A DNA stretch of 64,000 bases from a bacterium (GCA_046757025.1 JBHHXN010000004.1:1-64000); one strand, 5' to 3'; shown: positions 35,292 to 52,189, numbered from the stretch's first letter. Made by a program: numbers and translations. Notes: generated by a model not told the origin, from the sequence alone.

Positions 35292-35323
35292 AAAAAGCCA
35301 CCACAGAACAATTCTATGGTGGC
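35292..35323 (-). terminator. Rho-independent terminator ending the TolC/MlaC transcript
   Basis: Minus strand GCCACCATAGAA-TTG-TTCTGTGGTGGC followed by TTTTT. Confidence 0.7.
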
Positions 35324-35359: not shown

Positions 35360-35968
35360 TTATTTTTCCTCTAACTTTTTCACCAATTTGTTATACATTT
35401 CCTCATAGGAATTTTTGGCGATCTGTTTGTAAAAAGACTCGCGATAATTGCGCGCGGTGCTCACGCCGTCGATTTCTATGTCATAAACCAGCCATTGCCC
35501 GTCCACTTTGTGCATTTTGTAAACGATTTCCACTTCCTTCCTTTTTTTAAAAGCGATGGTGGTCACCTTGGCTTTTGAACCGTTGATCTCCGCTTCTTCA
35601 TACACCATTTTATCGGCTTTATAAATTTCTAATTTTTTCACAGAAGAATTTTTGATGAGTTGTGAAAAAGTTTTCACGAAGTCGTCTTGTTCCTTCGGGG
35701 TTCGCTGTTTCCAGTATTTGCCCAAAGACAATCTCGACAGCTCGCGAAAGTCCATGACGCCATTTATGACCTCTTTCAATTTTTCCCGAATTTCAGTGGT
35801 GATGTTATCATCCGCTTCATCGAGTATATTTTCGATGGCTTGATTGCGGGCTTTTACGATTTCCACCGGCGACACATCCGGTCGAGCAAAATTAGCGTTA
35901 CTGAAAAGGGTCAGGGCTCCCAATAACAAAATCGTTGGAATTATCCATCTATTTTTTTTCATGGTCAT
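35360..35968 (-). CDS. MlaC/Ttg2D-family periplasmic lipid-binding protein
   Basis: Signal peptide; MDFRELSRLSLGKYW, WLVYDIEIDGVS..RNYRESF. Confidence 0.85.
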   Translation of the reverse strand: MTMKKNRWIIPTILLLGALTLFSNANFARPDVSPVEIVKARNQAIENILDEADDNITTEIREKLKEVINGVMDFRELSRLSLGKYWKQRTPKEQDDFVKTFSQLIKNSSVKKLEIYKADKMVYEEAEINGSKAKVTTIAFKKRKEVEIVYKMHKVDGQWLVYDIEIDGVSTARNYRESFYKQIAKNSYEEMYNKLVKKLEEK

Positions 35969-36000
35969 TTCCTCTTTTTCTAAAATCTATCTATTACATT

Positions 36001-37374
36001 CTATTTCGCATACAAATCTCGGCCTGTAGCTTTACTTAATTTCGCCATTGCTATATTATACGTAAAAATGTTCTGTAAATGTTCCGCTTGCATGGCGCCA
36101 TTGGCTTTAAAAGCGTCGATCAGCTCTTTGACTTCGCCCACGCCGATATCAAAAGTCATGGTAGCAGAGCGCAGCCAATTGTCGCTGGCTTTGAGTGCCC
36201 GACGGCTGGCCCGCATGTTGCGTTCGGCCTGCTGCAATTCTAAATACGACTTCTCCACTTCCAATTTCAGACCGTCTATCAGCAGCTTTTCTTTTTGTGC
36301 CAGTTGTCGAAACTCCATCTGCGCCACACGCACCTTATCCCGCGTTTGCAAAAAATTCAGATTCAAATTCATCCCCAGAGCGACGCCCGGACGAAAATAA
36401 TTGGTGGGGTTGTAAATGAACGGTCCTTTCGGATCAAAGCGATCCTGTGCATAATTATATTTAATCTGTCCACCAAAAAAGAATTGCGGAAAATAATCGC
36501 TTTTGCTCACCGTAATCATGGCTCTTCGCGCGTTGATGCCCGCCCGCAGTTGCGACAGCTCCGCCCGATTTTGCAGCGCCATTTCGTAATAAACCGAGAG
36601 GCTGTCCAAATGAAAATCCAATGGATCCAGATATTCGGTAGCCGGCTCGATTTCCACGTCGTCTGCCAGTCCCAGCGTCACTTTCAGCACCGATTTCGTC
36701 AGCTTGATCTTATCCACGGTTTGCCTTTTTCTTTTGTCCACTTCGTAGCGGAAAATTTTCAGTTTAAACAGATCGGTTTGCGATATTTCATCGGAGCCCT
36801 CATCCAGCTTTTCCTGAATTTTGTCTTCCGCCTTTTTCAGCTCGTTGTCGGCATTTTCAACCACGCTTAAAAGCTCCTTTCCCAGCACCAGCGCCCAGTA
36901 GAGCTGACGCACTTGCAATCGCACGCTTTCGCGCTCTTTTTCGATTTTCGCTTGGTCTGCCTTCACCCCATAAGACGCAGCTTTTGCAATCCCGCTCAGT
37001 TTACCAAAGGTGTAAATCGGCTGAATCAAATCTAAATCTACCTGAGTGAAAAGTCTGAGATCGCCAGGAATACTGGTAATTGAATCCGGAGAAATGACAA
37101 AGCTGCCGGTTGGATCCATTTTACCGCGTGCTCTGGGAAGCGTTCCCCAGATATTTTTCACTTCAAATTTTGGGAGAAATTTAGCATGAGACGCCTGAGT
37201 TAATTTCGCCTCAGAGGTTTTTAAACTGAGCCGGGCATCTTGAATGGTCAAATTATTTTCAAAGGCTAATTTTTCGCAATCAGGCAGGCTTAATACTAAC
37301 TTTTTATTTTCTTGACTAACGGCATAGGTCGTGCAGATTAGAAAAATGTAGAGAACAAAATTTTGTTTTACCAT
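36001..37374 (-). CDS. TolC-family outer membrane protein
   Basis: Two OEP-like repeats (FLPKF/YFPQF, QPIYTFGK), C-terminal LSKATG. Confidence 0.85.
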   Translation of the reverse strand: MVKQNFVLYIFLICTTYAVSQENKKLVLSLPDCEKLAFENNLTIQDARLSLKTSEAKLTQASHAKFLPKFEVKNIWGTLPRARGKMDPTGSFVISPDSITSIPGDLRLFTQVDLDLIQPIYTFGKLSGIAKAASYGVKADQAKIEKERESVRLQVRQLYWALVLGKELLSVVENADNELKKAEDKIQEKLDEGSDEISQTDLFKLKIFRYEVDKRKRQTVDKIKLTKSVLKVTLGLADDVEIEPATEYLDPLDFHLDSLSVYYEMALQNRAELSQLRAGINARRAMITVSKSDYFPQFFFGGQIKYNYAQDRFDPKGPFIYNPTNYFRPGVALGMNLNLNFLQTRDKVRVAQMEFRQLAQKEKLLIDGLKLEVEKSYLELQQAERNMRASRRALKASDNWLRSATMTFDIGVGEVKELIDAFKANGAMQAEHLQNIFTYNIAMAKLSKATGRDLYAK

Positions 37375-37400
37375 CCACCCTCTTCATTGTATTTAAATGG

Positions 37401-38666
37401 TTATTCGGCTTTTAATTTCTCTTTGACACCGGAATCGGCGTCCGCCTCTTTAAGCGCCCGGATATCATCGTAATCGGCGTAAGCTTTTGAGTTCGTCGAA
37501 TTGGCGTCAGACAGGATGCCGATACCAACAGGCCGGGCGGGCGGTTTACCGCCGAAAGTTTTTTTATAGGCTTCATAAGCGTTGAATGTATAGGTTCGCC
37601 ATTCTCCCAGATGTTCTTCGCCGCTATCCGCCACGATGTTCCAGGGCTTGCCAATACCGCTGCGCTGCATGGCGGCTCCCACCGGCAGCGTGGTGCTCCA
37701 AACATATTTCACCGACTCCGGAATCAAACCCAATTTCTTTTTGTAGATGATGTAGATGCCAGCCGCGCTGTCCACCGAGCGACTGTAGCGCTCATCCCCG
37801 CCGGCTGGCACATGATGCACCCTCCAACGAAATGAAATGTAAGGATATTTCTTCAAATTCCACACGATGTCTTTCCCCAAAATCACCGATTCTCCGTTGT
37901 CTTCGGCTGCTAAAAATTTGTTACCCTTTTCTTCTACGATTTTGTATGGTTTATTTTTTTTATTATCCGATTTCTTCCACAGCCAGCCTCTTGGCAGCTT
38001 GCCGACTTCACTCGATTCAAAATCCTCTAAGATGACATAGTCGGAACGGGTCATCTCAGCTATCAAGTAAGCCAGCGAGTATTTTTTAATGATCTTGCTG
38101 CAAAAACTGTAGTAATCGCGCAGTAAACTTCTTTTTCCGGCTTTCAAGTTAGATATACGCCAGCTACCGTCTGGATATTTCAACATGTAAAGCGTGATTT
38201 CTTTTTTCTCTTTTACGCCTTCCAGTGAATAATTTAGTGTCGCAACGTTGTCATTGGTTTTGCTCGACGTTAATTTTATCCCTGGCAAATTTCCATTGCT
38301 TTTATCATTAAGATAGGTCAGAATCTTTTGCCGTAAAGAGATCTTGATTGCTTCCATGAACGCCTTTTTTTGGTGATCGCTGGTACCCTTCCACTTTTTT
38401 TGCAACATCTGTGGAGCCAGCCTTTCTACAGCGAACAATTCATCCACCAACTGGTAGAGCTGCTGCTCTCGCGAATCCGGATCGTTTTTAGCGCCATTTT
38501 TAAATTGATCGTGGATTTGTTTGTAAAATCGATCGATGGTTTGCTTGGGCGTCAGGCTGTCGTTTTCCCCCATCCCAAAATATGATGTGCCAGCACCAAC
38601 GACGGAAAACGACAAAATCAAGGAAACAAGCACAAAACGGGGCTTTAGATTTTTGTATTTAAACAT
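37401..38666 (-). CDS. Fusion of an MlaC-like domain and a DUF3047-like domain
   Basis: N-half resembles MlaC (QMLQKKW...WRISNL...SLLRDY); C-half YPYISFRWRV..GGDER..DSAA..IKY/VKYVWS..SDANST. Start chosen at ATG 38666. Confidence 0.7.
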   Translation of the reverse strand: MFKYKNLKPRFVLVSLILSFSVVGAGTSYFGMGENDSLTPKQTIDRFYKQIHDQFKNGAKNDPDSREQQLYQLVDELFAVERLAPQMLQKKWKGTSDHQKKAFMEAIKISLRQKILTYLNDKSNGNLPGIKLTSSKTNDNVATLNYSLEGVKEKKEITLYMLKYPDGSWRISNLKAGKRSLLRDYYSFCSKIIKKYSLAYLIAEMTRSDYVILEDFESSEVGKLPRGWLWKKSDNKKNKPYKIVEEKGNKFLAAEDNGESVILGKDIVWNLKKYPYISFRWRVHHVPAGGDERYSRSVDSAAGIYIIYKKKLGLIPESVKYVWSTTLPVGAAMQRSGIGKPWNIVADSGEEHLGEWRTYTFNAYEAYKKTFGGKPPARPVGIGILSDANSTNSKAYADYDDIRALKEADADSGVKEKLKAE

Positions 38667-39052
38667 AAATGATAGTCGCTGAATAAAATGATAAATTTGC
38701 AATCGCTTGGTTATTCTTTTAATAATCAACACTTTTGAGGATAGTATTGTTCCAGCAATCAATTTAATTTAGTTTAATCAAAATACAAATCAATACTTAT
38801 TTCGTTGAACAAAATAATCCATTCAACGCGATTTTGAGACAAAGGTTGCAAATTTGCTCATACCTGTGAAGCGTTAACCGGTATTATGAAAAACGGCTAT
38901 CCAGTTATATTATTCACCAAATTGCAATTTTTTTTTGAATATGTCAGAATTTTTTTCTCCCCAAAACAAGCGATTGGTTTTCAACTTTTGGCCATTGGTA
39001 TTTAATTTTTTAGTACTTACGTTGGGATTATCAATTCACCCTGTCGCTTAGT

Positions 39053-39200
39053 TAGTGATTGACCGAAAACGAACATCTTCATGCTGAGCGGAGTCAAAGC
39101 ATGACTAAAAAACAACAGCTTATCACCCTTCGACGCAGTTTATCCTGAGCTTGTCGAAGGGCTCTGGGTGAAGAAATATGGACTTTTCGGTCAATCACTA
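39053..39200. mobile_element. MITE-like element with perfect 17-bp terminal inverted repeats
   Basis: TAGTGATTGACCGAAAA ... TTTTCGGTCAATCACTA enclosing REP-like hairpins. Confidence 0.7.
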
Positions 39201-39301
39201 GTTACAATAACCATTTTAACTGATTGTGTTTTATTAGCTAACAACCAACGGCTAATTGCGAATCGCGCAATTTAGGTTCTCTTTTAATTGCTGATGATGC
39301 T

Positions 39302-41719
39302 CTAAGCAGTTTGCAGTTCCTTCACGGGCTGCTTTTTCGAGGTTTTCTTCTCTAAAAATTGCAGCAAAGCTGGCAAAACCAACATGGCCGTGACAAACGC
39401 AGCACTGATACCGATGATGGCCAGATCGCCGATGGAATTCAAGCCTGGATGTCGCGCCAGAATTAATCCAGAATAGCCCACGATGGTGGTTAAGGTGGTC
39501 ATAGCAATGGCCATTCCGGTGTTTCTTAAGACGTGGTAAAGAGAGCCGGGGCCTTCTTCCAGATAGCGGTGGTACAAATGCACGCCGTTGTCCACTCCGA
39601 TGCCGATGATACTGGGAAGCACCACAATGTTAAAGAAATTGAGTTTCATCCCGGTGAGATACATGACCACGCCCATCCACACTACACCGACTACCAAAGG
39701 AGTTAGCACAAACAAGGTGGCTTTGAAGCTATTGAAATCGATGAACACGATTATAAACACCACAAAAAAAGTCAGAATCACTGCCAACCTCCCCTCGCGA
39801 ATTAAGATCGTCAGCATCTCAGCCAGAATAATGTTTGAGCTGGAAGCATAATACGTTTTGCCGGACGCGGTAGTCATCTTGCCGATATCCCGGCGAAATT
39901 CAATGGCGTTACGGCCGTCTTTCAAGGCGACGCTGGGATAGATGAAAACAAAATTACCCACCTCGCCTTTTTTGTTGATGAATTGTCTTTTGTCTTTTTC
40001 AGGAAAATCCTCCCAGGTGAACGGCGCTTCCACCTGTAAGTAGCCGTACAATTTGTCCAGTCTTTCTTTATCTTCGCCCTTCACCACGTCTTCGGCTTCC
40101 TCGTCGATGAGCTGTCTTATTTGCTTGATTTTCGCGATTTTCTCAAACTGATCATCCGGCACCAGCGAAAACGCCGAGCGCACAGTTTTAACCGTTGGCG
40201 AAGTGGTGTCGCTTTTGATGATCGCTTTCACGGCTGTCACAATTTCTTCGGTCTCCGCTTTGGTGTCGGCCATTACCAGCGCCGGCGATTCGGACAGTTT
40301 GAACGCCCCCTCGGATTTTTTGCCGATCAACTCCCGCTCTTTGATATTGGCCCGCAGATTGGTAAAATCGTATTCAAAACTTACCTGACTGAAACTGTAA
40401 ACAGCAAACAGCGTGATCAGACCCGAGATCAGCAAGATCGGTTTAGCATATTTGAATTCCCTGCGCTGAAAGCTCATGCTCTTAGCCGGCACCGGCTTGA
40501 TTTTCAGCAAATGCCACTTTTCAAACAAGGTGATCATAGCGGGCAGCACCACCACCATGGCCACCAGCGCAAATAACATTCCCACGCCGGCGATGAAACC
40601 CAGATCGGAGAAGCCTTTGAAATCCATCAGCGTGAGCGACAAAAACGCCGCCGAAGTCGTGACCGCAGTGGTGGCCAGGGCCTTACCCGTTTGGTTGACC
40701 AGTTTCTCGATGGCGGCTTCAAAGCTCAAGCCGCTTCTTCGACTCTCCGAATATCGGGCGAAAGCGTGAATGCCGTAGTCGATTCCCAGTCCAAATAAAA
40801 TCACAAACAAAAAGCCGGTGATGGTATTTAAATTCCCAATGACCCAGTAGGTCAAACCAAACGTCCAGGTCAGCGACATCAGCAGGGTTAAGGTAATCAT
40901 GAATGCACCGGCAAAGCGACGAAAATAGAGAATGATCAACAAAAACACGCCGCCAAAGCCGTAATAAGCCGTACCGAGGATGTCCCTTTTCACCACCGCG
41001 TATTCATCTAATTTGGTTTTGAAATTGCCGCCGTAATAAATCGCCATTTCGGGATCGTACTTTTGTGGCTCTGCGGCTTCGACAATGGCCGTGACTTCGT
41101 CGTAAAAATCCTGTACAAAAGCCAGGTCGGTGTTGGTGCTGGTGGGCATCACTTTCATGATCAGCACAGTGCTGTCTTTGTTGATGTAATATTCATTGGG
41201 TTCTTTGTACTGGTATTCTTCTTCCCAGCTCGCCCAGCTCTCGTCTTCCGTTGATTCCTCATCGTCTGCAAAAAGGTCATCCACAAACAGAGGATTGAGC
41301 TTTTGTTTCTCCGCATCGATTTTATCCTGAATGCCCTCGTAAAGCGCGTCGATCTCCTCCAGGTCCATCAGCAGCAAACCGTATTTTTTGTAAAAAGCCA
41401 CGTCGTTTTTGTAATCCACATAATTGACAATGGGACTGGCAAGCAGTTTATTTTCCAGAGCGGCCGCAAACGCTTTGGCAGAATCGAGGTGGCTGGTTTC
41501 CAGGATTATTTTTAAATTGCCCACGCCGCCCACTTCTTCCTTGATGGCGTTCAGGGCTTTTACGCTTTCGAAATTATTGGGCAACAATTCAGCCAAATCA
41601 GTCTGCAAAGTCAACTTGGAAGAATAGTAGCCGCCAACAATACTGAGCAAAAGCGCTACGAGTAAAATGGGTACATAATACTTATAAACCACATAATATT
41701 TCTCAGAAAATCTGAACAT
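39302..41719 (-). CDS. MMPL/RND-family lipid exporter (HpnN-like)
   Basis: Two repeats with GLGIDYGIH and GIGVDNGVH; about 12 TM; 805 aa. Confidence 0.88.
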   Translation of the reverse strand: MFRFSEKYYVVYKYYVPILLVALLLSIVGGYYSSKLTLQTDLAELLPNNFESVKALNAIKEEVGGVGNLKIILETSHLDSAKAFAAALENKLLASPIVNYVDYKNDVAFYKKYGLLLMDLEEIDALYEGIQDKIDAEKQKLNPLFVDDLFADDEESTEDESWASWEEEYQYKEPNEYYINKDSTVLIMKVMPTSTNTDLAFVQDFYDEVTAIVEAAEPQKYDPEMAIYYGGNFKTKLDEYAVVKRDILGTAYYGFGGVFLLIILYFRRFAGAFMITLTLLMSLTWTFGLTYWVIGNLNTITGFLFVILFGLGIDYGIHAFARYSESRRSGLSFEAAIEKLVNQTGKALATTAVTTSAAFLSLTLMDFKGFSDLGFIAGVGMLFALVAMVVVLPAMITLFEKWHLLKIKPVPAKSMSFQRREFKYAKPILLISGLITLFAVYSFSQVSFEYDFTNLRANIKERELIGKKSEGAFKLSESPALVMADTKAETEEIVTAVKAIIKSDTTSPTVKTVRSAFSLVPDDQFEKIAKIKQIRQLIDEEAEDVVKGEDKERLDKLYGYLQVEAPFTWEDFPEKDKRQFINKKGEVGNFVFIYPSVALKDGRNAIEFRRDIGKMTTASGKTYYASSSNIILAEMLTILIREGRLAVILTFFVVFIIVFIDFNSFKATLFVLTPLVVGVVWMGVVMYLTGMKLNFFNIVVLPSIIGIGVDNGVHLYHRYLEEGPGSLYHVLRNTGMAIAMTTLTTIVGYSGLILARHPGLNSIGDLAIIGISAAFVTAMLVLPALLQFLEKKTSKKQPVKELQTA

Positions 41720-41805
41720 GTGCTATCCTTTTGTTGTTTTGGAATTAAAACGAATAGTATGAATGACCAGTTGAAAATCTGTATTGATTGATCATTGAAT
41801 AGTTA

Positions 41806-42087
41806 TCATGGTTTCCCGAATTTACTTAGGGACTCACCATGAAAAAATCCCCTTCGGCTTGAGCGGAAGATACGCTTCAACCGGAGTCCCGAAACAAGTT
41901 CGGGAATGGCTATGTTTTCAACGGGTCATTCCTATTAATAAATTAGAATCTAACATTTCTCACTTTAAGTTATGCATCTATGTTCATATTAAATAATTAG
42001 ATATGACAGGTTCACTTCATGCTGAGCGGAGTCGAAGCATGAATTACAGCCAGAACTAGTCACCCTTCGACTCCGCTCAGGGTGAAA
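41806..42087. repeat. Cluster of REP-like palindromes related to the MITE interior
   Basis: tcatggtttcccgaatttacttagggactcaccatga; cttcatgctgagcggagtcgaagcatga...cccttcgactccgctcagggtgaa. Confidence 0.6.
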
Positions 42088-42436
42088 GTAGAACAATCAG
42101 TAACCTCTTAATTAACAGTTGGTTTATGAATCACGTCACGAAGTGAGAAATGTTAATTAGAATGTAAAATTATTTCAAAAATCATTTTCAAACTTGAAAT
42201 TTATCATATAAACCATAAAAAGCAATAAATTGTTTCCAACAATTGCTCCGCTGTTCACCGACAACACCAGACCGGTAGCCGATTATTGAGTAAAGTAGGT
42301 ATTGTTCGAAAAGGAACTTATCACTTTACTCGTTTAACCAGATAAATATCCAACTTAGTGCTTGCAATGCATGTTTGAATAAACTAAATTAGCGTCATTT
42401 CATTCCAACAAACATAACGGGATTACAAATCTGAGC

Positions 42437-43954
42437 TTGAAAAACTTACCAGAAACTGCACAAAACAGCACAGACGGGCAAATTCAAAAAAAGCGCTCAA
42501 ACGTGGCCGGCAAAGCCGGTTTGATGGTAATGAGCCGGGCGGTGACCATCACTGTGCAGATGCTTTCGTTGATGGCGCTGACCCGTATTCTCACCAAAGA
42601 GGATTTCGGGCTGCTGACCTTTGTGCTGCTGGCATACGCTACCGTGACCACGCTTTCGCAGGTAGGCTTGCCGGACAGCATCTTTTATTATTTCGAGCGC
42701 GTCCCCCCCGAATCCCGAAAAACCCTGGCGTACCTCACCAGCAAAACTCTGCTCAAAATCGGTCTGGGCACTTCTATTTTGTTCGTGGTCTTGACATTCG
42801 TGGCTCCGCTCTGGGGGCACCCGGTAGACGGATTATTCATTCCCTTGATTTTCCTGGCGCTTTTGGAGCTGCCCACCATTCCCGTTCCCAATGTGTTGAT
42901 CGCCATCGATCGCGCCAAAGACGCGGCCTGGTTTAACATCGTGGCCAGCGTTTTGCAGTTAGCCACTTTGATCGTGCCGGCACTGATGGGTCAACCGCTG
43001 CTCATCATTCTGCTGAGTTACCTGGGATATGGCGTTGTGCGCTTTCTGTTAAGCGTTTATTTGTTTTTTAAAAATTTCAAAGGTCAATCTGGTGAACTGC
43101 CGGCAGGCATGGCACGCGAGCAGTTGCTTTACTCGTTACCGCTGGGATTGGCGCAGATGCTCTGGGGGCTGAATCGGCAGATTGATAAATACATCATTGC
43201 GGCCTTTTTTCCCATCGCCATCTTTGCGGAGTACAGCATCGGCGCCTGGGAAATCCCTCTGATTCCCTCTATTGCCTACGCGGTGGCTTCGGTGATGATG
43301 CCGCAATTTGTGGCAAACCATATAAAAAATGATCGGGAAGGCTTGCTTTCGCTCTGGTTCACTTCCATCCAAAAGGTCTCTATCATCGTACTACCGCTGA
43401 CCATTCTGTTTTTGATCAGCGCGGAAGAGTTCATTGCGGTTTGTTTTTCCGAAAAATATCTCGCAGCGGCGGTACCTTTTCGAATTTACACCCTGATCCT
43501 CCTGCAGCGGGTGGCCGCTTACAGCTCCATGCACCGGGCACTGGGTAACACTAAGGTCATATCTTACGCAGCCGCATATCTTTTGCTGATCAACGTGGGC
43601 TTGAGCCTGCCGCTGGTTATTTTGATGGGGGTAGCCGGACCGCCCACGGCGACGCTGCTGGCCAACATCTTCACCTGGGTTTACACTTTACAGAAAATGC
43701 GCCGCACGCTTGCCGTGTCTTTCAAAGAGGTCTTTCCGTTTCGTTTTTATGGCAAAACGCTGCTTACGGCGGTGATGGCCGGTATACCGGTTTTTATTCT
43801 AAAAATGAATGTGAACTATTCTTACGCGGTTGATTTGATCTGGATGGCGACGCTTTATTTGACCCTGTACGCCCTGCTCTCAAAAGTTGCCGGAGTGGTC
43901 AAAAAAGAAGATTGGCAGTTTCTGGCCAGAGGATTGAAACTGAAAGCGCAGTGA
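42437..43954 (+). CDS. Oligosaccharide flippase (Wzx/MOP family)
   Basis: RILTKEDFG, GLPDSIFYY, YSLPL..IDKYII..Y; 12-14 TM. Confidence 0.82.
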   Translation: MKNLPETAQNSTDGQIQKKRSNVAGKAGLMVMSRAVTITVQMLSLMALTRILTKEDFGLLTFVLLAYATVTTLSQVGLPDSIFYYFERVPPESRKTLAYLTSKTLLKIGLGTSILFVVLTFVAPLWGHPVDGLFIPLIFLALLELPTIPVPNVLIAIDRAKDAAWFNIVASVLQLATLIVPALMGQPLLIILLSYLGYGVVRFLLSVYLFFKNFKGQSGELPAGMAREQLLYSLPLGLAQMLWGLNRQIDKYIIAAFFPIAIFAEYSIGAWEIPLIPSIAYAVASVMMPQFVANHIKNDREGLLSLWFTSIQKVSIIVLPLTILFLISAEEFIAVCFSEKYLAAAVPFRIYTLILLQRVAAYSSMHRALGNTKVISYAAAYLLLINVGLSLPLVILMGVAGPPTATLLANIFTWVYTLQKMRRTLAVSFKEVFPFRFYGKTLLTAVMAGIPVFILKMNVNYSYAVDLIWMATLYLTLYALLSKVAGVVKKEDWQFLARGLKLKAQ

Positions 43955-43955
43955 T

Positions 43956-45731
43956 TCAACTAAAATGTTTTTCCACCCACCAGCTAAAAATTAAAATTGA
44001 CCAGAGCTTTAGTCCCACATTTTTGCCCTTTAAATGCGACTGCATCAAAGCAGAAATAAAATCAACATCTACCCATTGGGTGATTTTTGAATTCTCCAGG
44101 ACGGTATCTTCAAAAACGGCATGCAACGGCCCTTTGAGCCATTCTCCGACAGGCACGGTAAATCCATGTTTCGGCCGGCGGATAATTTCTATGGGAATAT
44201 GTGGTTTGGCCACTTCCTTTAAAAGCCGTTTTTTCTCTTTTAATCCAGTTTTAAAATTTCCGGACAAGGTCAAAACGTATTCAGCAACCTTTTGATCCAG
44301 GTAGGGTACGCGCGTTTCCAGGGAAGCCAGCATGCCCATTTTGTCCACCTTCATGAGCAAATCATCCACCAACCAATTGCGTAGATCGGTATAGAGCATG
44401 CTGTTTAGATGCCCGGCATCCTGGAAAAACGCTTGATCAGTACGCATTTTTTGTTCTGCGTCCATTTGGTCATCTTGAATAAAGCATCCCGGTAAAAGCC
44501 TTTTGCGCTCTGGTTCATGGAACAGACACGGACCCGGCAGGTTTATTTTGGTAAACATCCCGCTCAGGAACGTTCTACTCAAGAGATCTTTCAGCGCGTA
44601 TAAATGGTACCGTTTGTAACCACCAAAAAGTTCATCCGCACCCTCACCTGAAAGCACGACTTTTACTTTTTCAGCCGCAAATCGACTCATCAAATAGGTT
44701 GGTAAAATGGCGTAATCGGCTATCGGTTCATCCAACTGTTCGATGATGAATGGCAAGTGCTTCAGCGCTTCGGTGCCGGTTACGTTTATTTCATGATGAT
44801 GGGTTTGGTATTTTTCAGCTAAAATACGTGCGTAATCAATTTCATTAAATTTAGAGCCCTGGCCAAATCCCACAGAAAAAGTGTTCAACGGTTCCTGGCT
44901 ATTTTGCGCCGCGAAGGCCAACAGGCAGGAAGAATCCACCCCGCCGCTTAAAAACACGCCCACCGGTACATCGCTCACCAGGTGGCCCTTCACGGCCTCG
45001 TTGAAGAGACCATCCAGTTGGATTGCAGCCTGAGACATGGTGACGCCATTTTGCAACGCCGGTGCTGGCTGCCAATATCGGTACTCGCTTTTCGACTCCC
45101 GAACAATCTCCATCACGGAGGCCGGGGGAAGTTTCTCTATTCCGTTGAAAATGGTGCAATTGCCGCCGACGTATTGCCGAGTAAAATAAAAATTCACCGC
45201 GGCTGGATTCAACTCATTTAATTGTGGCAGGACACTGCGAATGGCTTTGATCTCGGAAGCAAAATATATTTTGCCTTCGAAATCGCAATGATAAAGCGGC
45301 TTGATGCCGATGCGGTCACGGGTTAAAATCAGTTTCCGTTTTGTGCGATCCCACAGAGCAAAAGCGAACATACCCGAAATGTAATCCAGAAACGACATGC
45401 CGTATTTTTCATACAGGGCCAGAATGACTTCGGTATCGCTTCTGGTTTTAAACGGATACCCTTCAGCTACAAGATTTTGTCGCAGCTGAGGAAAATTGTA
45501 AATTTCACCGTTGTAAGTGATGATGGACTGTCCGGTCGGAGAGGTCATGGGCTGTTGCCCGCTATCGATGTCGATGATGCTGAGCCGGCGATGCCCAAAA
45601 GCCACCGCATCTTCTTGAAAAAAACCACTGCCATCCGGACCGCGATGCGCCAGCACTTCGGTCATCTGTTCGATTTCTCGCTTTGCAGGCGGCGCCGAGT
45701 TGTAAGCGTAAATTCCAGCGATTCCACACAT
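43956..45731 (-). CDS. asnB: Asparagine synthase (glutamine-hydrolysing) family amidotransferase
   Basis: MCGIAG, HRGPD, HRRLSIID, LSGGVDSS, SGEGADELFGGY, KVDKMGM. Confidence 0.92.
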   Translation of the reverse strand: MCGIAGIYAYNSAPPAKREIEQMTEVLAHRGPDGSGFFQEDAVAFGHRRLSIIDIDSGQQPMTSPTGQSIITYNGEIYNFPQLRQNLVAEGYPFKTRSDTEVILALYEKYGMSFLDYISGMFAFALWDRTKRKLILTRDRIGIKPLYHCDFEGKIYFASEIKAIRSVLPQLNELNPAAVNFYFTRQYVGGNCTIFNGIEKLPPASVMEIVRESKSEYRYWQPAPALQNGVTMSQAAIQLDGLFNEAVKGHLVSDVPVGVFLSGGVDSSCLLAFAAQNSQEPLNTFSVGFGQGSKFNEIDYARILAEKYQTHHHEINVTGTEALKHLPFIIEQLDEPIADYAILPTYLMSRFAAEKVKVVLSGEGADELFGGYKRYHLYALKDLLSRTFLSGMFTKINLPGPCLFHEPERKRLLPGCFIQDDQMDAEQKMRTDQAFFQDAGHLNSMLYTDLRNWLVDDLLMKVDKMGMLASLETRVPYLDQKVAEYVLTLSGNFKTGLKEKKRLLKEVAKPHIPIEIIRRPKHGFTVPVGEWLKGPLHAVFEDTVLENSKITQWVDVDFISALMQSHLKGKNVGLKLWSILIFSWWVEKHFS

Positions 45732-45732
45732 T

Positions 45733-46965
45733 TTAATTTCGATATTTTTTCATTATTTGATAAAGCGCCGACACATTTTTTTTGACATCGAATTTTTCGC
45801 ACGCCGTGTTCCGGGCCGCCGTTCGCATGGCGGATAAATCCTTTGCTTCCAAAAAAGCCATCATAGCTTTGCTTAGAGCCTGCGAATCGCCTGCAGGAAT
45901 GAGCATCCCGTTTACGCCGTTTGTAATCGCCTCCGGAATGCCGGAAATATTTGTACCGATGATGGGCAGGCCGTGTGCCAGAGCTTCCAGACAAACATTG
46001 GGCAGGCCATCGCGATCGCCGTGCTCATCGATAATGGAGGGCATGACCAAAGCGTGGCAAGAGTCATAAATTTGGCTCATAGTATGTGGTGGCACGTAAC
46101 CAGGCAGGTCCACAGTGTCATGCAAACACCGTGCGCGAATTTGCTCTCTAAATGATTCCTCCAACGGGCCCTCGCCCACGATTTTGCACTTGAATCGATA
46201 GCCCGCCTCCTTTAAGCTCTGGCACGCTTCCAATAAATATTCGTAGCCTTTCTTAGGCACAAATCGACCCACGGCCAAAAAGGTAAAGGAATTGATTGGT
46301 TTTGCTTTCTGTTCGTGCTCTTTAGACAAAGCCAATCCGTGATGAATGGCAAACAATTTCGAGTTGACCCCCTTATCTACATTTTGCAAAAACTCTGCAT
46401 TAAAATTTGTGCAAGTCACCACGTAATTGGCTTTTTGAATTTTAGTCAGCATTCCACTGTTATCTTTGTAGATATCCATGGCGTGAGCGGTGCAGCCAAA
46501 AGGAATTTTTGTTAAAATAGAAAGATACAACGCTGTTTCAGTAGGCGCCGTTAAAAAATGGGCATGTATCAAATCAACCTGCTGTATTTTGATTTTTTCT
46601 GCAATCGCCGCTGCGCGAAACAGACAAACCAAACTTCGGCCGAGCTTTGGACGACGGTGTCCGAAAGTAATAAATTGTTGCCACGCCTGAATGTAAACGA
46701 CTGGATTTTTAACTTTGAAAATGGCATGTCGGAACAAACACCCGGGCGTAAACGGATTTTCGGGAATTTGGATAAAACGCGTCTTTAATGATTTTTCATC
46801 GTCGGTTAAATCTTCGCGTTCGATCACGGTGCGGGCGCCTACGAGCAATTCCACTCCCTGACTTTTCAGCTCCACCATTTCTCGCGTGATAAAATTCTGT
46901 GACCACTCAAACAGGCGATTTACAATGACGAAAACTCGCAAATTATCTGGCGCTGACTTTTTCAT
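45733..46965 (-). CDS. Glycosyltransferase family 4 (WcaL-like)
   Basis: IHAHF, TAHAMDIY, VGRFVPKKG, DGLPNVCLEA. Confidence 0.88.
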   Translation of the reverse strand: MKKSAPDNLRVFVIVNRLFEWSQNFITREMVELKSQGVELLVGARTVIEREDLTDDEKSLKTRFIQIPENPFTPGCLFRHAIFKVKNPVVYIQAWQQFITFGHRRPKLGRSLVCLFRAAAIAEKIKIQQVDLIHAHFLTAPTETALYLSILTKIPFGCTAHAMDIYKDNSGMLTKIQKANYVVTCTNFNAEFLQNVDKGVNSKLFAIHHGLALSKEHEQKAKPINSFTFLAVGRFVPKKGYEYLLEACQSLKEAGYRFKCKIVGEGPLEESFREQIRARCLHDTVDLPGYVPPHTMSQIYDSCHALVMPSIIDEHGDRDGLPNVCLEALAHGLPIIGTNISGIPEAITNGVNGMLIPAGDSQALSKAMMAFLEAKDLSAMRTAARNTACEKFDVKKNVSALYQIMKKYRN

Positions 46966-48169
46966 ATTCCTGCAATCGCTGGCTTAAAAACTCGGCGATC
47001 CTTTTTGCGCGCTGCTGCCAGGTGAATTTTTCCGAATCCAATCTGGCTTGTCTTGCAATGGAATGGGCCCAGGCTCGGTCTGCAAAAAGTTTACGCAGCG
47101 CAACGCTTGCGGATTCGACGTCATCCGGTGGCACCAATGCCGCGTTCTTTTCATGGAGGACGCCTTGTGTGTCCGGCAAATCCGGCGCTAAAATCGGTAC
47201 GCCAGCGGACAGGTAAAGAAAAGTCTTGATAGGTAGAATAGTACGGCCGTACTGCATCATGGGTTTGGCGCTGGGCGGGATGAGCAGCACATCGGAAGCA
47301 AACAGATATTTCGGCAGCTCCAAAACGGGCGCCCAGGGAAACTGTTTCACGTTTTTAAGCTGATCTCTACGGGCAGCGGTGGTAATCCAATCGGCGCGGT
47401 CGGAGACGGTTTTGCCGATAAAATAAAATTTCAGCGCCGGCAGTCTGGCCGCCATTTGCAAAACCATCTCCAGCCCTTTCATTTTATCCAGACGACCTGC
47501 ATAACAGACGATCTGATCGTCTTCCGTCCAACCGAGCTGCTTGCGGGCTTCCTGCTGGCTCAAACGCGGCGCCAGCAGCGCTGGATTAAAACCATTGTGA
47601 ATGACTGCAATCTTGTTTTCGTCCGCTCCAGCCTGCACCAGACTCTCCTTCGCTGGAATGGAATGGGTGATGATTCCCAGCAAATTTCGCCGGTGGCTTA
47701 GTTTGGCGATTTTTTTCGCGCAATTCAGCGGTGAGCGCGCGTAAATCCGATAGGTTTCGAAAACCACGGGCAGACCCAGCTGCAGCGCCAGCAGCAACGA
47801 AGCCCGGTGGCGGGTGTAGATGAGATCGTGATGTTTGAGCCGGGCATACGGCGAGGCCAGCAAGGCATGTGAATATTTTTCCAACCGCAACGGCATGCGC
47901 GGCAGATGCAGCAGCTCTTTCAATCCAAAACCGTTTGCCACGCGATAATAATTTCCGATGGCCTGTTTGCGCGATTCCGCGGCGACACCGAGATTTCGCC
48001 ACATTCTGGGAATGACAAGCTCGATGTTCAAGCCTTCCGCCGCCAAGGTCGAAACCGTGTTGATCACCTGCTCAGATTCCGCGTCTGAACGATCCAGCAT
48101 AAATTGATTATCGGAAATATAGGCGATTTTCTTTTTTTTAATGGAGTTTTCCAACAAATTGCGTTTCAT
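46943..48169 (-). CDS. Glycosyltransferase family 4
   Basis: VIHNG, YAGRLDKMKG, PIKTFLYLSAGVPI, FTWQQRA. Confidence 0.85.
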   Translation of the reverse strand: MKRNLLENSIKKKKIAYISDNQFMLDRSDAESEQVINTVSTLAAEGLNIELVIPRMWRNLGVAAESRKQAIGNYYRVANGFGLKELLHLPRMPLRLEKYSHALLASPYARLKHHDLIYTRHRASLLLALQLGLPVVFETYRIYARSPLNCAKKIAKLSHRRNLLGIITHSIPAKESLVQAGADENKIAVIHNGFNPALLAPRLSQQEARKQLGWTEDDQIVCYAGRLDKMKGLEMVLQMAARLPALKFYFIGKTVSDRADWITTAARRDQLKNVKQFPWAPVLELPKYLFASDVLLIPPSAKPMMQYGRTILPIKTFLYLSAGVPILAPDLPDTQGVLHEKNAALVPPDDVESASVALRKLFADRAWAHSIARQARLDSEKFTWQQRAKRIAEFLSQRLQEYEKVSAR

Positions 48170-48268
48170 CTTTGTTGATAAATAATGCTTATGACCCCAA
48201 TGAACGAACGTAAAAAAATATAGATAAACCTGCCCTCAGATGCAACTGCTTTTTGTTGGACTGTTAAT

Positions 48269-48322
48269 GAGTGTTTGAACGAAAACTCGAGAAATGCGCG
48301 ATTGAAAACCTCTACGCGAAGG
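48269..48322. repeat. Partial copy of the MITE left end
   Basis: gtgtttgaacgaaaactcgagaaat...aaacctctacgcgaagg, near-identical to 14842-14894. Confidence 0.6.
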
Positions 48323-48429
48323 TCTCCTCAGAATGACATCAAACCCGAGAGGTGGGGTGTGCGCAATTTACTGATCAAAACAAATCTAATTCATCTCTGG
48401 AAAATAAGTAAATAGGAGGATGCGGTCAG

Positions 48430-49440
48430 TTACGGAAGAGAACTTTCTTCTGTGACTTTGCCGTGTAACAGGCGCGCGGTTTTGGCCTGCAGGCGTTCTT
48501 TCACTTCGCGCGCCACAAACTGCACGGGGTACTGGTTGGCCAGGGAGTCCGACACCACACAATAGACACCGCAGCCATCCTGGCAATCTTTCTTCTTATT
48601 GTAACTGCGCAGCATTTCGGGTGTTACATCCAGCAAATCGATATTGGGCCGGCGCTGCATGCTGCACAACCAGAATTTGCCGCGTGCGGAAACGAAAAAA
48701 TATTTGTAGCCCGCCACGCAGGTCCAGTCGCGGCCGCCGCCGTTGAGCAGGGATTTCTGGTAGTCGAATAAAAAACCAGTGGTGTGAATTTTCTGGCCTT
48801 TTTTCTTGGCGTCGATTTGAAAATCGAGCAGCGATTTCAACGCGACTTTGTCGCCGTTGTTCACGCCGTATTTGCCGTTGGGACCGGCATGCACTAAACG
48901 CGCATGGGTGGGGATGTCATGGGCAATTCCATATTCCAAAACCTGCCTGGCTTCGTTCAGGGATTCTTTGAACAGCACCCCGGTAATATTAAATTTCAGG
49001 CTTGATTTTTTGAGCAGCTCAATTTTTGGGATAACGGTTTTCAGGGATTTTCGGGTTGAGGGTATGGGCGTCATGCGATCCACGGAAATTTGCAGGGAGT
49101 CTAAACCGGCGGCTTCCAGCCCGCTGATGAGCTCGGCCGTGAGTTTGAAACCGTTGGTGGACATGCTGGTGCGCAAATCCAGCTCTTTGCAATAGCGCAC
49201 GATTTCCACGATATTCGGGTGCAGCAGCGGTTCCCCGCCCTGCAGCCCGATGCGAATGCAGCCCAATTCTTTGATTTTATCCAGCCATTTTTTTACGTCA
49301 TCCAGAGACGGATGCGGCACGCTGTTGTCGTATTCCGTACAATAATGGCAGTCCAGATTGCATTGGTCCGTTACATAAAAATGACAGGCAATCGGTTTAT
49401 CATCAAACTCACGTTTAGCCATTTTAAGCCAGAACGCCAT
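48430..49440 (-). CDS. Radical SAM protein with C-terminal Twitch/SPASM-like Cys motif
   Basis: CNLDCHYC, GGEPLLHP, CVAG...WLC...CQDGCGVYC. Confidence 0.88.
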   Translation of the reverse strand: MAFWLKMAKREFDDKPIACHFYVTDQCNLDCHYCTEYDNSVPHPSLDDVKKWLDKIKELGCIRIGLQGGEPLLHPNIVEIVRYCKELDLRTSMSTNGFKLTAELISGLEAAGLDSLQISVDRMTPIPSTRKSLKTVIPKIELLKKSSLKFNITGVLFKESLNEARQVLEYGIAHDIPTHARLVHAGPNGKYGVNNGDKVALKSLLDFQIDAKKKGQKIHTTGFLFDYQKSLLNGGGRDWTCVAGYKYFFVSARGKFWLCSMQRRPNIDLLDVTPEMLRSYNKKKDCQDGCGVYCVVSDSLANQYPVQFVAREVKERLQAKTARLLHGKVTEESSLP

Positions 49441-49553
49441 CTTATTCCTCCATTAAAATAAGGGGGACCGGCAAAACCGCTGGTCCGCGTAAAATTCAAT
49501 TCTTGCTATTGAACCGCATAATCCAGGATAGATTAGGCAACTTCCCCTGGAAT

Positions 49554-50582
49554 TCAGGAAGCATCCTGCTGCACGGTGATTTCCGCCGCTTCCTCTAAAA
49601 CCTGCCGGTCTTTTACTTCCTCGGAAGTCGGGTCGGGAATGGTCTGCTTTGAACGCCACTGATCCAGGTAGCTCATCTGATGCACACAACTCACGGTGCA
49701 ATAGGTGCTGCAATTTTTATGGGTACGGTATTCCCGCTTGATGTCTTCCATCGTGTATTCATTAACAGGAATGGCAGGGTAACCGCGCTGCTGCGAACAC
49801 CAATGCACCTGTCCGAATTCACAAATATAGAGATAGCGAGCCCCTGCCCGGCATTTCCACCGATTGATTTTGCCTTCGATGAGTTTTTTTTGAAAAACAT
49901 GATAATTGACAAAATGCACAAACGATCTGGAAAGCTTGCCAATTTCATCATACACTTCACGCTGTGTTTTGCTCAGCGGCTTTAAGATGCCGTTTTCATC
50001 ATGCAGCAAACCGACGGTGCTGGAAAAACCGTAACCCTTGGCGCGCTTGGCGATGATGACCGCGTCCTGAGTTCGGTCCTCGCTCACCCCCATCACGGAA
50101 TTGATGTTGACTTTAAACCGGGCATGTCGCGCCAACAATTGCAGTTTTTTATCCAGCACTTTTAAGCTTTTATGGGAAACGTCGTCCGGTTCGATATTGT
50201 CGATGCTGATTTGCAGCTCCTGCAAACCAGCTTGGTTAAGCCGCTCAATGCGTTCTTTGGTGAGCAGATAACCGTTGGTGATCAAGGTCACAACCATGCC
50301 GTGCTTCCGAACATGCTCAATGATGATCTCCAGGTCGGGGTGCAATAACGGCTCTCCTCCCGTGCAGGTGACCACCGAAGTTTTTAGCCGGGCTAATGCT
50401 TCGATGCGCCGCTTCATCATGTCAAGTGGAATGGGCTCCGACACTTTATCATACTCGTTGCAATAAGTACAACTTAAGTTACAGCGACGCGTTACCACAA
50501 GGTGAGCTAAAAGAGGGTGAGACGTTGAAACCGTAGCACGACAGAGGAATTTTAGGAAGATCAGTAGCTCACGAATTTTCAT
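49554..50582 (-). CDS. Radical SAM protein, paralog of 48430..49440
   Basis: CNLSCTYC, GGEPLLHP, CRAG...HWC...CSTYCTVSC. Confidence 0.88.
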   Translation of the reverse strand: MKIRELLIFLKFLCRATVSTSHPLLAHLVVTRRCNLSCTYCNEYDKVSEPIPLDMMKRRIEALARLKTSVVTCTGGEPLLHPDLEIIIEHVRKHGMVVTLITNGYLLTKERIERLNQAGLQELQISIDNIEPDDVSHKSLKVLDKKLQLLARHARFKVNINSVMGVSEDRTQDAVIIAKRAKGYGFSSTVGLLHDENGILKPLSKTQREVYDEIGKLSRSFVHFVNYHVFQKKLIEGKINRWKCRAGARYLYICEFGQVHWCSQQRGYPAIPVNEYTMEDIKREYRTHKNCSTYCTVSCVHQMSYLDQWRSKQTIPDPTSEEVKDRQVLEEAAEITVQQDAS

Positions 50583-50590
50583 GAATTTCT

Positions 50591-52189
50591 CTATGAAGTG
50601 AATTTCTGTTTTTTCACATATATTGAACCTTCTAATGCAGCGCCGTTATTCCGAGAAGTCAATAAACTTTTTATCGGGTTAAAAACAGAAATTTTGTTTT
50701 CTTGTGAAAGCATGGTCAGGGCTGATACAAAAATACACACGCTGATAAAAAAAACCACGCTCATCAACAGCCAATAAAAAAAGGTGATATTTCCCGACAA
50801 CATGAGCAAAGCAGCGATGAATGAAAACAAATCTCTTCGACCGAAACCGTGCACCAGTCCAAAGAGCTTTAAATACCAAACTTTGTTTTTAGAATTTTTA
50901 AAAGCCGAAATTTCTTTATCAAAGGTTCTCATACTGCGTGAACCTTTTCTGCGCACGTAGAGCATGCCGTATTTTAACGCGACGATCAAAAAGGCAATAT
51001 TTATCACTGCCGCCACAAATACGATAAAATTTTGACTGGCGTTATAAGCACCAACCGTAACCCCGATGATAAATGCGATGTAAGACATTTGATCGGTGAT
51101 GGTATCCACCAGCGCGCCGGAGTTGGAATTCTTCAATTTGATCTTGGCCACTTCGCCATCGCAGCCGTCTAAAATCGACACCAGTTGAAACAGGATGCCG
51201 GCCACAATGGTGGTGACGACTTCCCCAAACGAAACCAGATACGCGATGAAAATCGTAAACAACAAGTTAAAAATAGAAATTTGATTCGGAGTAATCGGAG
51301 TTCGGATCAACCATTTGGTTATGTGATTCGAGATTTTGCGGTTGATGGATTTCGCAATGATTCCATCACTTTTGGAGCGGGTGGAATGCAGCAATATTTT
51401 TTCCGCGTGCCGGACATCCGGAATCGTGTCCACATCCTGCCAGTAGGAGTTTTCGATGTTGAACGTCCTCATGCGGTTGATCTGAGACAGCACGCGAATG
51501 CCTCCCGAAAGCGTGTAATCGCCGTTGGCCTGACTCTGGCGCAAGGCGTCAAATAAATGCGGGGTACAGACGAAGATTCCCACATCGATGGCGTTGAAAT
51601 CCGTGAGGCTTTTACCCAAATTGATGAGACGATTGTTCTCCGTCCGAACTTTGGTGGCGTCATCGAGATTGGGTACTCTATTCAACGCATAGTCCACACA
51701 TAAAAGCCCCTGATCGTTGCCCAGGTCGATGTCCACCAGTTTGCTCAAAATGTTGGGATCGAAGACGTGATCAGACATAAACAGAAAAAATTTACCTTCG
51801 ACGTATCGTTCTGCTTTTAACACGGAAATGCCATTAGGATTGCGCCAATCGAGATTGCGCACCCAGGTTATCTTAACCCCCAGTTTGTCAGCTTTGATGG
51901 TTTGGCGAATCCGCGCAGCCTGATACCCCAAAACGATGACAAATTCTTTCACCCCAGCCTTTTTTGCAGACAGAATCACCCGTTGCAGCAAAGGCATGCC
52001 CCCGACTTTGACTAATGGTTTGGGGCAGTTATTTTGATAACCGTGTAACCGGCTGCCGTTACCCGCTGCGATGATCACAGCTTTGGTGATGGATTCTTGT
52101 TTTTCTAAAAGTTCTGCGTTGGTGGAAGAGGAATTTACATCAGGTAGATAAGTAGAACAAGACGTATCATTTCGTAAATTGAATTGCAT
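50591..52189 (-). CDS. Bifunctional NTP-transferase / CDP-alcohol phosphatidyltransferase (IPCT/DIPPS-like)
   Basis: IIAAGNGSR..PKPL, MSDH, WQDVDT; then DG...NRKIS, TPNQIS, DGCDGEVAK...GALVDTITD plus TM helices. Confidence 0.85.
   Translation of the reverse strand: MQFNLRNDTSCSTYLPDVNSSSTNAELLEKQESITKAVIIAAGNGSRLHGYQNNCPKPLVKVGGMPLLQRVILSAKKAGVKEFVIVLGYQAARIRQTIKADKLGVKITWVRNLDWRNPNGISVLKAERYVEGKFFLFMSDHVFDPNILSKLVDIDLGNDQGLLCVDYALNRVPNLDDATKVRTENNRLINLGKSLTDFNAIDVGIFVCTPHLFDALRQSQANGDYTLSGGIRVLSQINRMRTFNIENSYWQDVDTIPDVRHAEKILLHSTRSKSDGIIAKSINRKISNHITKWLIRTPITPNQISIFNLLFTIFIAYLVSFGEVVTTIVAGILFQLVSILDGCDGEVAKIKLKNSNSGALVDTITDQMSYIAFIIGVTVGAYNASQNFIVFVAAVINIAFLIVALKYGMLYVRRKGSRSMRTFDKEISAFKNSKNKVWYLKLFGLVHGFGRRDLFSFIAALLMLSGNITFFYWLLMSVVFFISVCIFVSALTMLSQENKISVFNPIKSLLTSRNNGAALEGSIYVKKQKFTS

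Follow-up and report, generated by a model that had tools for sequence, protein, structure and literature searches.

Does a run of 11 genes in one bacterial genome make up a single system, and what would such a system build and export? The question is raised by positions 35360-52189 of a window of 64,000 nt (GCA_046757025.1, JBHHXN010000004.1:1-64000; "the window" always means this whole stretch of analysed DNA). Encoded there are an IPCT/DIPPS-like fusion of an NTP-transferase to a CDP-alcohol phosphotransferase (CDP-AP), two radical SAM proteins (rS1 and rS2), two family 4 glycosyltransferases (GT4s, here GTa and GTb), an AsnB-type amidotransferase, a Wzx-like flippase, an MMPL transporter, a periplasmic MlaC::DUF3047 fusion (MlaC-DUF3047), a TolC-like outer membrane factor (OEP) and an MlaC protein. 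A preliminary description of this DNA took these genes for one 17-kb system that makes an unusual phospho-polyol (glyco)lipid and delivers it to the outer membrane. Comparison with relatives revealed a different organization: the locus is a fixed core (the fusion, MlaC-DUF3047, OEP and MlaC) together with an exchangeable tailoring cassette, not one fixed 17-kb system. Judged from sequence and synteny, the chances are about even that an envelope lipid with a modified head group of the phospho-inositol type is made by this locus and exported, to be delivered to the outer membrane.

Synteny within the family and across phyla

A total of 40 relatives were searched; counts are given for 20 genomes of the same family, and loci were fetched from eight of these. 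Genomes are labelled G (G000 is the genome of the window) and loci L, the closest relative being G012 (L083 and L084), and genes in the loci were called with a custom ORF (open reading frame) script. Proteins of the MlaC-DUF3047 type were found in 20 of the 20 same-family genomes and fusion orthologues (E < 1e-200) in 18, with one more partial copy at a contig edge and none in a genome that is 70% complete. In 13 of the 20 a single contig carries both genes at a distance of 1-14 kb, as it does in G000 and in one genome of the same order; in five they lie on separate contigs of fragmented assemblies. The eight loci have a fixed frame, in which aldehyde dehydrogenase and the fusion are followed by a variable stretch and then by MlaC-DUF3047, OEP, MlaC and RNase HII, and OEP follows MlaC-DUF3047 in all eight.

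The variable stretch is empty in L088, L089 and L092 (G003, G010 and G004), where the fusion stands directly beside MlaC-DUF3047 and OEP, and consists of one SPASM-type radical SAM gene in L090 and L094 (G005 and G001). It is richer in L091 (G014: GT4, radical SAM-SPASM, NTP-transferase, HAD, CDP-AP, Wzx and MMPL), in L093 (G009: methyltransferase, sulfatase-family protein, CDP-AP and MMPL) and in L083/L084 (G012: rS1, rS2, two GT4s, Wzx, MMPL, a TPP enzyme and an NTP-transferase::aminotransferase fusion). MMPL is present in the cassette-rich relatives L003, L083, L091 and L093, and also in the more distant L013, L109 and L110. Compared with G012, the window is without the TPP enzyme and the NTP-transferase::aminotransferase fusion and adds GTb, AsnB and ORF 52545-53948; tblastn detected no remnants of G012's extra cassette genes in the window, the sole real match being that of a G012 GT4 to GTa (E 3e-6). 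The two extra genes of G012 (L083:13458-16467, between MMPL and MlaC-DUF3047) encode a 368-aa TPP enzyme and a 640-aa fusion of NTP_transf_3 to a class-V aminotransferase, a pair that we take to recall phosphonate (2-aminoethylphosphonate) activation genes.

Within the cassette, GTa adjoins rS2 in L003, L004, L083 and L087, GTb is present in L003 and not in G012, and rS1 adjoins rS2 in just one same-family genome, G012. Among the ten family loci examined, AsnB occurs in the window alone, with no counterpart in L003 or L083-L094, GTb in one other locus and rS1 in one other genome, so that neither the single 17-kb system put forward in the preliminary description nor a conserved radical SAM pair could be upheld. 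G013 (contig C4:5710-5898) retains, within an open frame of 99 aa, a 63-residue fragment that is 54% identical to residues 150-212 of rS2; flanked by the fusion gene and the MlaC-DUF3047 gene, it is probably what is left of a cassette gene. The sub-blocks can separate, yet the fusion and the carriers keep together. Their linkage in 13 of 20 genomes bears out the proposal that biosynthetic and transport blocks belong together, and an adjacency beyond chance is borne out as well, the order recurring in relatives and, partly, in other phyla.

For comparisons beyond the family rS2 was used as the anchor. Its family comprises 955 relatives, with 52-86% identity among 20 sequences chosen across phyla. 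In a pattern scan with each species represented by one genome, 234 rS2 relatives were confirmed, from which the best 80 loci were kept (three of them repeat same-family stretches, and many lie on short contigs) and annotated by phmmer with the window proteins and Pfam-verified seeds. By NCBI labels the phyla involved are Calditrichota/KSB1, Gemmatimonadota/Latescibacterota, Zixibacteria, Verrucomicrobiota, Desulfobacterota and Bacteroidota. A CDP-AP or fusion lies near rS2 in 70 of the 80 loci, followed by ABC ATPase (49), Wzx (42), MacB (41), OEP (39), HlyD (37), SDR (26), a separate NTP-transferase (22), inositol-phosphate synthase (MIPS; 19, of the Verrucomicrobiota type and Pfam-confirmed, E 7e-36), GT4 (12), DUF3047 (5, of which 4 standalone and 1 fused), LPG_synthase_TM (4) and MMPL (3).

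The Verrucomicrobiota-type cluster has the order CDP-AP, NTP-transferase, SDR, Wzx, epimerase, GT-C (PMT_2), GT2, YdjC, rS2, CDP-AP, ABC, MacB, HlyD, OEP, OEP and MIPS, in which ABC, MacB, HlyD and two OEPs replace MMPL, MlaC and DUF3047. At L044:5784-9875 and in similar loci, genes for an epimerase/dehydratase, GT-C (PMT_2), GT2 and a YdjC-type deacetylase were observed immediately upstream of rS2. Other orders are closer to that of the window: GT4, GT4, Wzx, rS2, fusion, DUF3047, MMPL and HAD in L013; LPG_synthase_TM, OEP, DUF3047, MlaC, rS2, GT4, DUF6798 and a second radical SAM in L010 and L015, with a fusion-like gene elsewhere in both genomes (that of L015 a fragment at a contig edge); fusion, Wzx, CDP-AP, rS2, an unknown gene and OEP in L008; rS2, Wzx and CDP-AP in L034; and rS2, CDP-AP and DUF3047 in L076. 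DUF3047 served as a second anchor, for which 61 genomes were sampled from the phylum of L015 and 20 DUF3047 regions were fetched. Of the four rS2-bearing genomes in this sample, three have rS2 no more than 3 kb from DUF3047, and one has it at a contig edge. Two of the 20 regions (L109 and L110) hold NTP-transferase, CDP-AP, LPG_synthase_TM, OEP, DUF3047 (447 aa), MlaC and MMPL, Pfam-confirmed and without rS2; two others hold Wzx, GT4 and DUF3047, and one holds rS2, CDP-AP and DUF3047.

Proteins of the core and the cassette

The best NCBIfam match of the fusion is the IPCT/DIPPS model NF041135, built for Thermococcales, at 238.4 bits and under the equivalog cut-off of 580; the same model is the best match of all four cluster CDP-APs tested. 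Its N-terminal domain (PF12804/PF00483, residues 36-153) is of the IPCT type, and the protein aligns over residues 33-375 with A. fulgidus IPCT/DIPPS (PDB 4mnd, E 5.4e-50) and matches the IPCT domain 2xme (E 1.4e-26). The C-terminal part is a membrane CDP-AP (PF01066, E 6e-11) with at least four hydrophobic segments beyond residue 300 and the signature D341-G-C-D-G-E-V-A-K...G358xxxD362xxxD366, in which Lys stands where DxxDGxxAR has Arg. The two-domain architecture and the CDP-alcohol phosphotransferase signature are common to the window fusion, A. fulgidus IPCT/DIPPS and AF2299 (4o6m). The fusion differs from the A. fulgidus enzyme in its score under the equivalog cut-off, in the Lys for Arg and in its setting, a lipid-carrier/outer-membrane locus instead of solute genes.

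G000 holds two near-identical MIPS genes, both on contigs other than that of the window and each preceded by a 223-225 aa CDP-alcohol transferase that is PIP-synthase-like but under the PIP synthase cut-offs. They belong to near-identical operon copies on contigs C249 and C42 (L115:121-5969 and L116:7585-13939), composed of aldehyde dehydrogenase, class-III aminotransferase, TP_methylase, the small PIP-synthase-like CDP-alcohol transferase and MIPS; the pair could be a true duplication or assembly redundancy. A second, shorter IPCT/DIPPS-like fusion of 443 aa (contig C146, L118:7648-8979; 39% identity to the window fusion) adjoins a DUF4202/HD-domain gene, with no transport genes within the available 10 kb. 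Since MIPS sits inside the Verrucomicrobiota-type cluster, and is present elsewhere in the own genome, a polyol head group gains support, and inositol is most likely the polyol.

The AlphaFold2 (AF2) model of MlaC-DUF3047 has a predicted local distance difference test score (pLDDT) of 81.5. Residues 36-208 form an MlaC domain (Z 16.2, root-mean-square deviation 2.5, 169 residues aligned to 4fcz_A), and residues 206-409, the DUF3047 domain, form a beta-jelly-roll; the beta-sandwich of glucuronyl C5-epimerase (Z 13.6) comes closest to it in fold, ahead of the carbohydrate-binding modules CBM11, CBM16 and CBM30 (Z ~10). The gene probably begins downstream of the TTG at 38762, likely at 38666, where a Met precedes the signal-peptide-like segment, and signal-peptide-like N-termini are found on the periplasmic carriers and OEP in general. 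The MlaC fold is shared with the Mla system (PF05494 in two window genes); no Pfam match to the MlaD, MlaE, MlaF or MlaA families was found among the 11 locus proteins. The MlaC gene is preceded by OEP in L084 and L092; in L010, L015 and L109 it is DUF3047 that precedes it. A stand-alone second DUF3047 gene (241 aa, PF11249 E 4.7e-58) is present on contig C208 of G000 (L117:5698-6420), adjoining genes for a SpoU methylase and for an M14 carboxypeptidase that bears a type IX secretion tail; such a copy was observed in 20 of 20 same-family genomes.

rS1 and rS2 are paralogues (33% identity) with the same CX3CX2C motif and C-terminal cysteine pattern, and eight Cys of rS2 (C27, C31 and C34, together with 241, 259, 286, 290 and 294) are invariant in the alignment of 20 sequences. 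Pfam SPASM (PF13186) gave no match at E <= 0.001. The AF2 model of rS2 (pLDDT 83.8) has PqqE, BlsE, MoaA, SuiB, anSME and viperin as its nearest folds, of which PqqE, BlsE and MoaA are SPASM/Twitch enzymes, and no close solved relative was found. Several of these enzymes act on nucleotide-linked substrates. The best PDB sequence matches of the glycosyltransferases are Tll1590 and Alr3699 for GTa and BshA for GTb. Since rS2 adjoins either GT4 or GT2 and the YdjC deacetylase, analogy suggests that it may remodel a glycosylated head group, or else act on the CDP-activated precursor. Calditol synthase (Cds) and HpnJ have been named as radical SAM head-group enzymes that remodel sugar-type lipid head groups (PMC13459092, a 2026 review whose main text contains no occurrence of 'CDP'). 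rS2 is akin to these in its usual place beside GT4 or GT2 and YdjC, and differs in having PqqE, BlsE, MoaA and viperin among its nearest folds.

Gene run and its surroundings

The 11 ORFs, their strands and the terminator were found where the preliminary description had placed them, according to ORF coordinates, Pfam, NCBIfam and a hairpin search, and each domain call was upheld by Pfam and NCBIfam (Table 1). The way the genes are spaced and oriented points to three or more transcription units, the first running from the fusion to AsnB, the second consisting of Wzx on the opposite strand, and the last of MMPL followed, after a gap of 540-636 bp, by MlaC-DUF3047, OEP and MlaC. No convincing ORF is present in the gaps 38763-39301 and 41720-42436, and Rfam at gathering thresholds gave no match to structured RNAs in 34000-56000. 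In the divergent intergenic region between Wzx and MMPL, positions 42014-42042 match the closest relative at 28 of 29 bases (L084, near 5416-5444, about 5 kb beyond the cluster), which may be a short repeat, a regulatory motif or chance.

Table 1. Features of the locus, with positions counted from the first base of the window
Feature	Position	Strand	Evidence and remarks
Sigma-70-like promoter candidate	52321-52349	-	TTGACA-17-TATATT, 11/12; consensus match only; upstream of fusion gene
NTP-transferase::CDP-alcohol phosphotransferase fusion (IPCT/DIPPS-like), core	50591-52189	-	NTP_transf_3/NTP_transferase and CDP-OH_P_transf
rS1, radical SAM, cassette	49554-50582	-	Radical_SAM (Pfam)
rS2, radical SAM, cassette and cross-phylum anchor	48430-49440	-	Radical_SAM (Pfam)
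GTa, GT4 glycosyltransferase, cassette	46943-48169	-	Pfam
GTb, GT4 glycosyltransferase, cassette	45733-46965	-	Pfam
AsnB-type glutamine amidotransferase, cassette	43956-45731	-	Asn_synthase and GATase; TIGR01536 504.9 bits (cut-off 267.1)
Wzx-like MOP flippase	42437-43954	+	Polysacc_synt; PF01943 E 3.5e-19, PF13440 E 1.9e-17
MMPL / HAE3-type RND transporter, HpnN-like	39302-41719	-	HpnN TIGR03480 327.3 bits (cut-off 751.85)
MlaC::DUF3047 periplasmic fusion, core	37401-38762	-	MlaC and DUF3047 (Pfam)
TolC-like outer membrane factor (OEP), core	36001-37374	-	Pfam
MlaC/HpnM-like periplasmic lipid-binding protein, core	35360-35968	-	PF05494; Pfam and NCBIfam
Intrinsic-terminator-like hairpin, 3' of transport genes	35297-35323	-	12-bp stem, 6 GC pairs, then T run

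The assembly comprises 5.96 Mb and is 94.8% complete (94.77%). Window DNA occurs in hydrothermal-vent metagenome runs, with no RNA run among those listed. Directly upstream of the fusion, the aldehyde dehydrogenase gene (54022-55623, minus strand) is kept in the same-family loci L003, L005, L083, L090, L091, L092 and L094. Between the two lies a 467-aa cytoplasmic ORF (52545-53948, minus strand) with no Pfam, NCBIfam or PDB sequence match, which a protein atlas groups with GH15/glucoamylase-like proteins (feature score 0.99; structure TM 0.69-0.97) and which is missing at the equivalent position in L003 and in all eight relatives' loci. Outside the cluster, 30105-31496 (minus strand) encodes a B12-binding radical SAM protein of the CUAEP/CCAEP-tail family (NF040546, 594 bits) and adjoins MoaA.

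Function of the locus and competing explanations

We infer the donor, the acceptor, each reaction and the destination of the product from the gene content, domain families, folds, catalytic motif and synteny that were observed. The fused enzyme would activate a polyol phosphate, most likely myo-inositol-1-phosphate, to a CDP-alcohol, and its membrane domain would move the phospho-polyol onto a membrane-bound acceptor at the cytoplasmic face. From the cassette, the two GT4s may attach sugars, AsnB may amidate, and the two radical SAM enzymes may remodel the head group or the CDP-activated precursor. Wzx would then flip the enlarged head group, the HpnN-like MMPL pump would extract the product from the inner membrane, and MlaC, MlaC-DUF3047 (a lipid-binding domain with a CBM-like jelly-roll) and the TolC-like protein would carry it outward. 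The export machine is MMPL/MlaC/DUF3047 in some lineages and MacB/HlyD in others; since export genes are always present and the machine differs by lineage, export to or through the outer membrane appears to be part of the function.

Several observations weigh against a lipid product or against a single system. None of the locus genes makes the lipid acceptor or points to its identity, and the sole characterised close homologue of the fusion makes soluble di-myo-inositol phosphate, a plausible solute at hydrothermal vents; the gene just upstream of the fusion encodes the GH15/glucoamylase-like cytoplasmic protein. Orthologues of rS2 (E < 1e-100) are present in only 5 of the 20 same-family genomes, and in L085, L086 and L087 (G004, G009 and G001) rS2 lies with GT4 or Wzx genes on a contig apart from the MlaC-DUF3047 locus. 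The preliminary description had treated independent sub-blocks in relatives as a sign of incidental adjacency, and here the linkage of the core stood, while the tailoring genes proved to have a separate locus in some relatives. Roughly three quarters of the 80 loci represent one Verrucomicrobiota-type cluster, so that the 80, the best of 234, are not independent. In the phylum of L015, DUF3047 is present in 42 of 61 genomes and rS2 orthologues in 4 of 61, and 15 of the 20 DUF3047 regions show no partner gene with the seed proteins used; the DUF3047 family is therefore broader than the present system, and one branch belongs to it. A likeness of the GT4s to the inositol-acting PimA and MshA was also looked for, and a PDB sequence search gave no specific similarity. 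The conserved order in one family may moreover reflect descent and not function; aldehyde dehydrogenase is also kept beside the fusion.

Instead of an envelope lipid, the product could be a carrier-lipid-linked or secreted glycoconjugate with phospho-inositol, built on a polyprenol-type carrier, flipped by Wzx, released or attached to the surface, and leaving through OEP as exit channel. Wzx-type MOP flippases are common to the window and to Wzx/Wzy-dependent polysaccharide loci, for which GT4 pairs and AsnB are typical too, and NCBIfam matches to EpsE, WcaL and the XrtA/PEP-CTERM amidotransferase point the same way, as do the CBM-like fold of DUF3047 and the GT-C (PMT_2), GT2, epimerase/dehydratase and MacB-type tripartite exporter that Verrucomicrobiota-type clusters add. 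However, a search confined to the 11 proteins of the locus (E <= 0.001) gave neither an initiating phosphoglycosyltransferase nor a Wzy, a chain-length regulator or a Wza, minimal family loci are without any GT or Wzx, and the invariant partners are lipid carriers, with an MlaC fold at Z 16.2 to phospholipid-bound structures and an HpnN-like MMPL as the pump. We consider a glycoconjugate unlikely. The genes might also serve separate functions side by side, the fusion being a true IPCT/DIPPS for di-myo-inositol phosphate, GT4, AsnB and Wzx making a surface polysaccharide, and MMPL, MlaC and OEP acting in general envelope-lipid transport or efflux. The full-length homology of the fusion to A. 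fulgidus IPCT/DIPPS, the vent origin of the DNA, the separation of tailoring genes from carriers in some relatives, the GH15/MGH-like hydrolase next door and the presence of MIPS in all 41 genomes sampled from the class, regardless of cassette, are consistent with this. Yet DIPPS-like CDP-APs lie beside DUF3047, MlaC, OEP or MMPL in at least three other lineages (L013, L076 and L109/L110), and the association of rS2 with CDP-AP or fusion in 70 of the 80 loci and the gap between 238 and 580 bits also argue against it; the 443-aa fusion on C146 could serve solute synthesis instead. Such a side-by-side arrangement seems to us improbable, slightly more so than a glycoconjugate.

Hopanoid tailoring and transport by an analogue of hpnH-N, which the preliminary description had named as a pathway onto which the genes might map, deserves almost no credence. 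Hopanoid clusters with HpnN and HpnM likewise combine an RND/MMPL pump and MlaC-like proteins with lipid-tailoring genes including a radical SAM, and the order GT2, YdjC, radical SAM in Verrucomicrobiota-type clusters resembles the HpnI, HpnK, HpnJ order of hopanoid clusters. The NCBIfam matches to HpnN (327.3 bits), HpnM (61.6 and 31.6) and HpnH (51.9) are weak, with cut-offs far above these scores (751.85, 160.1 and 225.05, respectively). In contrast to HpnJ, rS1 and rS2 are without a B12 domain (Pfam), and HpnJ was not among the best 25 of 69 NCBIfam matches for rS1 or rS2. The squalene-hopene cyclase model TIGR01507 had no match in G000 at its 94.77% completeness, which excludes the hopanoid link; in agreement with the preliminary description, neither this cyclase nor Wzy nor inositol-phosphate synthase was detected by Pfam (E <= 0.001) among the 11 proteins.

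An exported, head-group-modified lipid has a known parallel in the mycobacterial phosphatidylinositol-mannoside pathway, which proceeds from phosphatidylinositol synthesis through the GT4s PimA and PimB' to flipping and MmpL-type export. The logic is alike (an inositol phospholipid, GT4 glycosylation at the cytoplasmic face, flipping and MMPL-family export), but the donor route proposed here would run via CDP-inositol and not CDP-diacylglycerol, and the outer-membrane leg would use MlaC-DUF3047 and OEP. The nearest published idea, as far as the main texts of the papers cited here go, is a putative and unconfirmed alternative inositol-lipid cluster of Bacteroidetes, with MIPS, NTP transferase, CDP-alcohol phosphatidyltransferase, HAD hydrolase and an LPG-synthase-like gene nearby (Heaver et al. 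2022, PMC9246714). In the main text of that paper the NTP transferase and CDP-alcohol transferase are proposed to form CDP-inositol and to transfer it to a lipid, as here, and the HAD hydrolase and LPG_synthase_TM recur in clusters related to the window (L013, L091, L010, L015 and L109). In contrast to the Bacteroidetes cluster, MIPS lies outside the window, on other contigs beside a small PIP-synthase-like CDP-AP, and 35360-52189 holds no HAD gene. The main text has no occurrence of radical SAM, a count that does not extend to DUF3047, MlaC, OEP or MMPL. No description of a cluster such as the present one was found in the literature, the supplements of PMC9246714 and PMC13459092 being left out.

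We tentatively propose, as a possibility that falls short of an even chance, an undescribed CDP-inositol (Kennedy-type) pathway for inositol-phosphate-anchored glycolipids that would be common to many Gram-negative environmental phyla. A new radical SAM family would remodel the CDP-activated or glycosylated cyclitol head group, MlaC-DUF3047 would read both the lipid tail and the glycan head, and the cassette would give each strain its own head group, in the manner of O-antigen loci. Bacteria are generally considered to contain inositol lipids only rarely, and neither DUF3047 nor the rS2 radical SAM family has, to our knowledge, been assigned a function. If true, these two unnamed protein families would gain their first functional context, and a lipid head-group locus would be seen to follow the plan of an O-antigen locus, in which the flanks are fixed and the middle varies. 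Through this locus, a new class of glycolipids of the outer membrane would also become accessible to testing in phyla that are widespread and for the most part uncultured, the abundant soil Verrucomicrobiota among them, and the locus bears on how special lipids are transported to the outer membrane in diderm bacteria outside the Proteobacteria.

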